A stretch of 64,000 nt of DNA from Promethearchaeota archaeon (GTDB lineage Archaea; Asgardarchaeota; Lokiarchaeia; Sigyniarchaeales; SOKP01), in the NCBI GenBank assembly GCA_048938855.1, contig JBHLLT010000006.1, forward strand, positions 32,001 to 96,000. Reading direction: 5' to 3'. The translations under genes and the position numbers were made by a program. This document shows, piece by piece, positions 55,092 through 56,799 of this stretch. Under the pieces are notes generated by a model. It was given only the letters and a program-made list of their open reading frames with translations, made no database searches and had not been told where the DNA came from. The stretch's first letter is position 1. Every line of letters begins with the position of its first letter.

Positions 55092-56093
55092 TTGACGATT
55101 GAAAAGATAATTCAAAAGATTGATGGTTTATTAAAAAAAGCTAATTACGAGACATTAGCACTGGGTAGTTTTGCTACTACAAAAAGTAAATTCTGTTTTG
55201 ATCTTTTAGCTAGAAAGGACGATTTAATATTTAGTGTTAAAATTTTTCCTAATATCGATAACTTGAATCAAGATATAATTCGAGATATTAAATCTCTATC
55301 CTTAATCCTCAAATCAAAACCTTTATTGATTGGAGTCAGAAATCGATATCAAAAATTAGAAGATAACACGATTTATGTAAGAGAAGATTTACCCTTCATA
55401 ACACTCAATACATTTGAGAATATACTCAATGATAATTACCCCCATATCTTAGCAAGAAGAGGAGGTGGAATTGTATTTTTAGATGGTACATTAATGAAAA
55501 TTCTGAGAGAAAAGCATTCAATAACAAGAAAGGAATTATCAGAAGTCTTAGGAGTGACTAAAAGAACTATTTGTTCATATGAAAACGAATCTATGAGACC
55601 TTCTGAGAAAATCGCTAAAAAAATATTAGAAATCTTAGATAATAATGCATTATGTAAAAAAATCAACGTTTTTAGCTGGAGTATACATAATGAGATAGAA
55701 GAAAATGAAATATTTGAAGAACAAGAATTAAGCCATTTTGAATCCCATGTTCAGGATATAATCAAGGATATTGGACTTTCTTCATATTGGTATAAAAAAG
55801 GTTCAGTACCTTTCAAATTATCATTATACTCTCACTCTGATGAAAAAAGATTAAATGGATTTTATCCTCTATTTTCCGGTATAACAGAAGAACAAGGTAA
55901 AATTAAAGAAATGAGCTTTCAATGTTTAAGAATGTTTACAGATTTATTTCATAAAACATCTCTCTTTATTATAGATAATGATATTAAAATTCCTGAACCA
56001 TTTAAGAAAATTAAAATTCCAATAATCAAAATTAAAAACCTTGAAGAAGTAGATAATGAGCAAGAATTCATCGAACTCATTCAAGATTCATGA
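55092..56093 (+). CDS. Archaeal HTH transcriptional regulator (nuclease-like + XRE domain)
   Basis: CFDLLARK, NIDNL, ARRGG, LGVTKRTICSYE. Confidence 0.85.
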   Translation: MTIEKIIQKIDGLLKKANYETLALGSFATTKSKFCFDLLARKDDLIFSVKIFPNIDNLNQDIIRDIKSLSLILKSKPLLIGVRNRYQKLEDNTIYVREDLPFITLNTFENILNDNYPHILARRGGGIVFLDGTLMKILREKHSITRKELSEVLGVTKRTICSYENESMRPSEKIAKKILEILDNNALCKKINVFSWSIHNEIEENEIFEEQELSHFESHVQDIIKDIGLSSYWYKKGSVPFKLSLYSHSDEKRLNGFYPLFSGITEEQGKIKEMSFQCLRMFTDLFHKTSLFIIDNDIKIPEPFKKIKIPIIKIKNLEEVDNEQEFIELIQDS

Positions 56094-56799
56094 AGATGAA
56101 TCCGACCTAATATGTGGGATAGACGAGGCGGGTAGAATCTAATTCTTTTCGAATTATATGTTAAAAGGCTCTGTCTTAGGCCCAATGGTTTTATGCGGAA
56201 TTTGCTTCAAAAAATCTAAAATTGAGTTATTATCAGAAATAGGAGTAAAGGATTCTAAGAAACTGTCACCTAAAAGAAGAAGTGAATTAGCAGAAATCTT
56301 ACAAAATTATTGCTTCTCTATTAAAATCATTATTATTAATCCTCAGGAAATTGATGAGAGAGAGAGTAAAAAAATTACAATGAATAGACTTGAAGAATTG
56401 AAAATGGCAGAGATCATTAATGAATTGAAACCAGATGTAATATATATTGATGCTGCTGATGTAAATGAAACGAGATTTGGAGATTCCATAAAAAAATTAC
56501 TAATATATTCTCCCAGAAAAATAATATCTAAACATAAAGCTGATGACCTCTATCCAATAGTTTCAGCAGGATCTATAATGGCTAAATGTAAAAGAGATGC
56601 TATGATTGAAGAACTACACAAAAAATACGGAAATTTTGGCTCAGGATACCCTTCAGATGTTAAAACAACTCAATTCCTAAGAGATTTTGTGAAAAAACAC
56701 AAAAAAGCTCCAATAATCGCAAGAAAATCGTGGGATACCACCAAAAAAATAATAAATGAAGAGGTCTCTTCAAAAAAAATAACTGATTACCTTAATTAA
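56056..56799 (+). CDS. rnhB: Ribonuclease HII, split by a 30-nt intron (join 56056..56135,56166..56799)
   Basis: Spliced frame: MSKN...DLICGIDEAGR|GSVLGPMV...GVKDSKKL...IDAAD...HKADDLYPIVSAGSIMAK...GSGYPSD. Start could be ATG 56056 or ATT 56086. Confidence 0.92.
56136..56165 (+). other. Putative BHB-type mRNA intron in rnhB
   Basis: AATCTAATTCTTTTCGAATTATATGTTAAA: in-frame TAA, TAATTC/GAATTA hairpin, 3-nt bulges AG^A and AA^A. Confidence 0.8.

Follow-up and report, generated by a model that had tools for sequence, protein, structure and literature searches.

A putative tRNA-type intron in the RNase HII gene of an Asgard archaeon, with inserts at the same site in distant archaea

Described BHB introns and the interrupted rnhB gene

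The bulge-helix-bulge (BHB) intron in the 5' UTR of Haloferax HVO_1309 is removed from an mRNA by EndA and leaves the reading frame unbroken, and according to the same 2020 paper the only other BHB intron reported in archaeal mRNA is that of cbf5 (PMC7714728). The cbf5 pre-mRNA intron is found in Desulfurococcales and Sulfolobales (Watanabe 2002; Yoshinari 2006; Yokobori 2009, PMC2738675), and EndA cuts after the second base of each bulge (PMC2738675). The rnhB insert described in this report resembles the cbf5 intron in that it is short (26-36 nt, as compared to 16-44 nt for cbf5), has a relaxed BHB with predicted cuts after the second bulge base, interrupts catalytic codons, would need a hetero-oligomeric EndA and has a patchy distribution with secondary losses. 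It differs in occurring in Asgard archaea and other groups, at the same site across phyla, and in a source genome with at least four further interrupted genes; moreover, splicing has been demonstrated by cDNA for cbf5, whereas we infer it for rnhB. Archaeal tRNA BHB introns, of which Asgard archaea have many at non-canonical positions, are alike in motif, size and enzymes, and coding-sequence introns are not reported in the two studies concerned (PMC11291895; bioRxiv 10.64898/2026.10.13.758758). The substrate in the case of rnhB would be an mRNA and not a tRNA. The HAC1 and XBP1 mRNAs also carry a short intron which is removed without the spliceosome, XBP1 being joined by RtcB, and there Ire1 cuts in two stem-loops under established stress control; with EndA and a BHB in place of Ire1 and two stem-loops, the likeness to rnhB is an analogy only. 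Our literature search, with most subscription journals outside it, found no report of newer BHB introns in coding sequences, of an rnhB intron or of coding introns in Asgard archaea, and the rnhB intron is, as far as is searchable, unpublished.

In the window (the whole stretch of DNA analysed, 64,000 nucleotides) the 30-nt insert is located inside rnhB, which encodes RNase HII, at the codons of the active-site motif DEAGRG. The sequence-only reading had proposed that an in-frame TAA lies within the insert and that its exact removal restores the frame. This is borne out: the unspliced frame ends two codons into the insert, and with 56136-56165 removed a single frame runs from ATG 56056 to TAA 56797-56799 and gives a conserved protein of 237 aa with DEAGRG at residue 23. 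When all deletions of 20-44 nt near the site were tried, only 56136-56165 or 56137-56166 gave DEAGRG and an open frame, and these two leave the same product because the flanks repeat an A. The features in the window are as follows.

56056..56135, + strand: rnhB exon 1, with the N-terminal extension, the catalytic Asp-Glu of DEAG and the first two bases of the Arg codon
56136..56165, + strand: putative BHB intron of 30 nt, with the in-frame TAA (56140-56142) and an inner hairpin with a five-base loop
56130..56136, + strand: 5' strand of the BHB, with central-helix strand 56130-56133, a 3-nt bulge and the predicted cut 56135/56136
56160..56166, + strand: 3' strand of the BHB, with central-helix strand 56160-56163, a bulge and the predicted cut 56165/56166
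56122..56175, + strand: complete BHB domain, with the outer helix between the exons (56122-56129 paired to 56167-56175)
56166..56799, + strand: rnhB exon 2, the remainder of RNase HII, intact
14358..14387, + strand: tRNA-Leu intron 2 of 30 nt, at a non-canonical site
25674..27146, - strand: RNA ligase RtcB, the likely ligase, trans-acting and outside the rnhB locus
25206..25649, + strand: archease, the RtcB cofactor, adjoining rtcB

The joined product has the N-terminal DEAGRG as well as the downstream acidic motifs of RNase HII, its relatives match solved RNase HII structures, and exon 2 alone scores 202 bits against TIGR00729 (cut-off 123). The database version of the gene is a truncated protein of 213 aa, which starts at ATG 56158 within the intron. 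As had been noted from the sequence, this form lacks the first catalytic Asp and Glu, and it matches TIGR00729 from position 9 only, while an intron-less relative matches from position 1. The motif is likewise missing, through truncated calls, in 89 of the 120 best public protein matches. The N-terminal extension is present in intron-less family members too. The interrupted gene is the sole RNase HII match in the source genome (97% complete), where a search with PF00075 found no RNase HI.

rnhB faces the genes for fibrillarin and Nop5, and its start overlaps the last 38 nt of an upstream HTH regulator gene (56056-56093), an overlap that is kept across the family. A sigma-70 promoter scan at the locus stayed at chance level, the sigma-70 model not fitting archaea. 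At the insert no Rfam match, ribozyme core or homing-endonuclease frame was found; a group I, group II or endonuclease-coding intron was rejected, the insert being only 30 nt long and giving no Rfam match.

Pairing, distribution and splicing enzymes

The relaxed BHB drawn in the sequence-only reading holds as to its pairing. The central helix joins 56130-56133 with 56160-56163 by three G-U pairs and one G-A mismatch (3/4 paired, all G-U, no Watson-Crick pair), the bulges are at 56134-56136 and 56164-56166, and the inner stem is formed by 56140-56145 with 56151-56156. The outer helix has two possible registers, and because of this ambiguity the 3' bulge is of 3 or 4 nt, the 5' bulge being of 3 nt. 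The single sequence gives a fold with z = -1.3, which 19 of 200 shuffles equal, and approximately 13% of random sites reach the same ad hoc BHB score. The fold of the source genome, taken alone, is therefore not clearly above chance, and the evidence beyond chance is comparative. A central helix free of Watson-Crick pairs occurs in only 3 of 64 family members, the source genome among them. Cuts after the second base of each bulge would give the in-frame product, as had been proposed, and only the unslid register pairs. Judged by its sequence, the insert has the tested features of a cbf5-type intron, the second bulge being ambiguous.

The comparison, by contrast, is convincing. Among 62 distinct family junctions the central helix forms 230 of 248 possible pairs, with at least three of four in each junction, as compared to 60-125 of 248 when the helix is slid by one to three bases, and the fourth pair varies between U-G, G-C, C-G and U-A. 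In the 59 rows of alignment A1, 93.4% of the cells of the full structure are paired and 58 changes are double-sided, as against 27-44% paired for slid versions, and RNAalifold recovers the central and inner helices unprompted. The family shuffle controls overstate the case because related sequences are not independent; kinship inflates the family pairing counts, and the slid controls and the distant set described below are less affected. The exons are constrained as well: the Glu codon is GAG in 64/64 intron-bearing genes but in 17/27 intron-less family genes, and the Pro/Ser codon is pyrimidine-ended in 62/64 and 15/27, respectively, so that the outer-helix exon bases are constrained only where the intron is present. 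The residue after DEAGRG (window 56170-56172) is Ser instead of the usual Pro in 27/64 intron-bearing and 1/45 intron-less genes, which may be a consequence of the exon helix or merely of shared descent.

The genus was searched with a pattern in which 28-32 free bases separate the two exon ends. This pattern matched in 49 of 54 genomes, and the reversed pattern, used as control, in none. Of the five non-matching genomes, two have no gene match, one is masked, one is intron-less, and the fifth has a stop in its gene match but was missed by the pattern. The sole intron-less genus gene (L062 in G106) has altered junction codons, and its tree neighbours L024 and L026 carry the intron, a pattern as expected after intron loss and relaxation. 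In another genome (L025 in G022) masked bases and unrelated sequence come after an intron-bearing rnhB, which may reflect an insertion or a mis-join. At the level of the family 64 parsed loci have an insert, its length being 30 nt in 61, 29 nt in two and 31 nt in one; every 30-nt insert has an in-frame stop, and 27 loci lack an insert. In other families of the order and class no insert was found in 18 loci. On a quick RNase HII gene tree the state changes 14 times, at least five of them on well-supported branches. The intron has been gained or lost repeatedly on this tree, and the gains and losses cannot be ordered.

A phylum-wide search gave 274 matches, 150 of them listed, and does not bear on absence elsewhere in the phylum. 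An exon-only pattern, run against 185,579 genomes, matched 84 times; among the 80 matches listed 53 are near the source family, 23 are distant rnhB genes and four are bacterial, these four being chance matches and not RNase HII. At least 23 distant rnhB genes have inserts of 26-36 nt at the same base, 19 of the 23 inserts not being a multiple of three. By their record titles, which may be wrong, they belong to Hadarchaeota, Nanohaloarchaea, Woesearchaeota, Micrarchaeota and relatives, Bathyarchaeia, Methanosarcinales and an unnamed archaeon, and their RNase HII proteins are 37-51% identical to the nearest in the comparison set. Their central helices form 89 of 92 pairs, 77 of them Watson-Crick, as against 13-46 when slid, with unrelated inner sequences. 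This set is the cleanest structural test because the search pattern contained no pairing. An EndA domain is encoded in all five distant genomes examined.

The source genome has two EndA genes, for an alpha (C93) and a beta (C34) subunit. In an alignment with the catalytic subunit of Aeropyrum EndA the alpha protein keeps the active-site Tyr, His and Lys and also the N-terminal loop with its lysine; the second protein lacks the catalytic His and, by its sequence, looks like a structural (beta) subunit. Such a loop lets EndA, as in Aeropyrum, cut relaxed motifs and has been reported in Asgard EndA (PMC5829648). The host accordingly encodes a two-subunit EndA with the relaxed-motif loop, together with RtcB. 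The parallel that had been drawn to a 30-nt intron 2 of tRNA-Leu also stands: this intron has a central helix of 4/4 pairs, and it shows that introns of such size and shape at a non-canonical site must be spliced in the cell, though no sequence likeness between it and the rnhB intron was seen beyond shape. The tRNA-Leu gene (anticodon GAG, window 14295-14467, + strand) seemingly has three introns, located in the D-arm, 5' of the anticodon stem and near the T-arm, and it was missed by both ARAGORN and Rfam. Two further intron-bearing tRNA genes, 11489-11592 (- strand) and 12945-13046 (+ strand), were found by Rfam and not by ARAGORN, which found only 24 tRNA genes in the whole genome.

Probable splicing and its alternatives

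From these data we consider it highly probable that the 30-nt insert is an archaeal tRNA-type intron whose mRNA is cut and rejoined. The comparative evidence, and the presence of a suitable endonuclease and ligase, give strong support to an EndA/RtcB-type BHB intron in the rnhB message, which very probably has to be cut and rejoined. The rnhB pre-mRNA would fold into the relaxed BHB, the two-subunit EndA would cut after the second base of each bulge (56135 and 56165), and RtcB with archease would join the exons and rebuild the Arg codon of DEAGRG, the 237-aa RNase HII being made only after joining. The intron is most likely a tolerated passenger, constitutively spliced and repeatedly gained or lost. 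The joined junction was looked for twice in metagenome contigs: one scan gave no match, and the other gave six, all of them unrelated intron-less genes (43-48% identity). No close full-length copy came up when proteins were searched with the joined N-terminus. The full-length relatives nearest to intron-bearing genes differ in their junction codons (Arg being CGN) and represent intron-less genomic alleles rather than transcripts. These searches neither favour nor oppose splicing.

If the RNA were left uncut, translation could still be recoded, by read-through of the stop or by the ribosome hopping over the hairpin. The length of 61 of the 64 family inserts (exactly 30 nt, a multiple of three) is in line with such recoding, as is the position of the hairpin 3' of the take-off point; known ribosomal bypass signals have a hairpin after the take-off point. 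However, the stops are TAA, TAG or TGA at five codon positions, often two per insert, and 22 inserts (three in the family and 19 distant) break the frame, which therefore excludes read-through; the latter would also add 10 residues within the catalytic strand. In none of 64 cases does the take-off codon match the landing codon, which speaks against hopping, and the conserved exon-intron pairing with 3-nt bulges is not needed for recoding, so that we give recoding very little credence. Similarly improbable is that the gene is a pseudogene, or that only the truncated 213-aa product is made, perhaps with a separate short exon-1 peptide. Many database entries have the truncated form, and 38 of 61 inserts have an in-frame start 3' of their last stop, but the other 23 have none, and the truncated form lacks the first catalytic residues. 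In pooled genus comparisons the seven codons of CGIDEAG in exon 1 have 40 synonymous and no non-synonymous differences, and for exon 2 the dN/dS within the genus is about 0.12; purifying selection acts on both exons, and gene decay is therefore excluded. The frame-breaking inserts leave both exons intact, and no other RNase H gene was found in the genome. An assembly artefact, which a metagenome assembly such as the source might suggest, has next to no probability: the identical insert is present in an independent assembly (a Logan contig from another run, L249), which therefore excludes it, and homologous inserts occur in dozens of genomes.

A further possibility adds to the tRNA-type intron and does not replace it, namely that incomplete or condition-dependent splicing sets the level of RNase HII. 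The intron is kept in nearly the whole genus, its central helix is weak in the source genome, and the same site is used in distant groups; a negative-regulator role has been proposed for the cbf5 intron (PMC2738675), and BHB splicing in the 5' UTR affects the expression of HVO_1309 (PMC7714728). On the other hand, the state changes at least five and up to 14 times on the RNase HII tree, intron-less sister lineages exist, and distant copies have perfect helices with unrelated inner sequence. We consider such a control point rather unlikely. The regulation like that of HAC1/XBP1 put forward in the sequence-only reading is unsupported, and a tolerated passenger accounts equally well or better for the repeated loss or gain. 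The same reading held that a tRNA-type intron had entered mRNA in this lineage; the intron is supported by the comparative evidence and the enzymes, whereas the limit to the lineage has to be given up, the same site being used in distant archaeal groups and the insert being missing in other families and in many family members.

As to why this site is used, the flanking codons pair even without the intron, with a mean of -5 kcal/mol in intron-less genes and -8.8 in joined intron-bearing ones, and enclose seven or eight bases in a loop resembling that of an anticodon. This pairing, by which the joined exons take on the look of a tRNA anticodon arm, probably makes the site a hot spot. We infer that this stem-loop makes the rnhB site one of the few in an mRNA able to host a removable intron, and the repeated use of the site in distant groups may have this cause; descent from an old intron that was lost many times, or transfer, are further possible origins.

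Other interrupted genes and their meaning

Further inserts were found in the source genome by a strict intron-aware alignment, in which no RNA motif was used and which comprised 1,226 alignments to 2.4 Mb (55%) of an intron-less relative; a first, looser version was too noisy. It gave 28 breaks, of which those in rnhB, uppS and rpl11 only were convincing by eye. With these three and two more genes, at least five genes with at least six inserts are interrupted, rnhB included, and invariant motifs are hit. The inserts outside rnhB are the following.

Contig C16 (G000) 18885-18914, + strand: uppS insert of 30 nt, stop-bearing, in the DGNRR motif
Contig C49 (G000) ~57360-57460, - strand: two rpl11 inserts of 37 and 36 nt around a micro-exon of seven codons
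Contig C74 (G000) ~52175-52205, - strand: AMP phosphorylase insert (L248) of 30 nt, stop-bearing, in KHSTGG
Contig C25 (G000) ~37250-37280, + strand: FGGY sugar kinase insert (L246) of 30 nt, stop-bearing, in IDHGTGG

The AMP phosphorylase insert has a perfect four-pair central helix, and those of uppS and the FGGY kinase each have an 8-pair stem with no clear central helix. In seven further genomes of the genus the uppS frame is short in a like manner, while most of the rest have it in full, so that its distribution is patchy. A helicase gene (C79) that had seemed another candidate proved to be intact in another frame. The idea that similar inserts might be found across the genome has thus gained four more genes, with stop-bearing inserts of 30-37 nt, while two de novo motif scans, which missed the rnhB control and gave as many matches in controls, were uninformative.

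A C-G-closed hairpin with a five-base loop purine-N-N-U-C is present at window 56145-56151 and in the rpl11 and AMP phosphorylase inserts, and the loop is conserved in most family rnhB introns. Going by the sequences, this loop may be a binding site or point to a shared origin; scanning the genome for such hairpins was uninformative.

That tRNA-type splicing of coding mRNA is routine and has been overlooked in the family, affecting several conserved genes in each genome at catalytic motifs and the same rnhB codon in several archaeal phyla, with inefficient or conditional splicing setting the levels of RNase HII and other enzymes, is an unlikely extension. If true, regulated EndA/RtcB splicing would be, in kind, a prokaryotic precursor of regulated splicing without a spliceosome. 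Public records mis-call this RNase HII as a truncated, inactive-looking protein of 213 aa, and expressing it in another host would require the joined frame. With presence, absence and covariation all recorded at a single site, the origin and loss of BHB introns become testable. A second interrupted gene, in Asgard archaea and other groups, together with the further genes, would make spliced protein genes in archaea much less exceptional than thought, and would place them in the group closest to eukaryotes.
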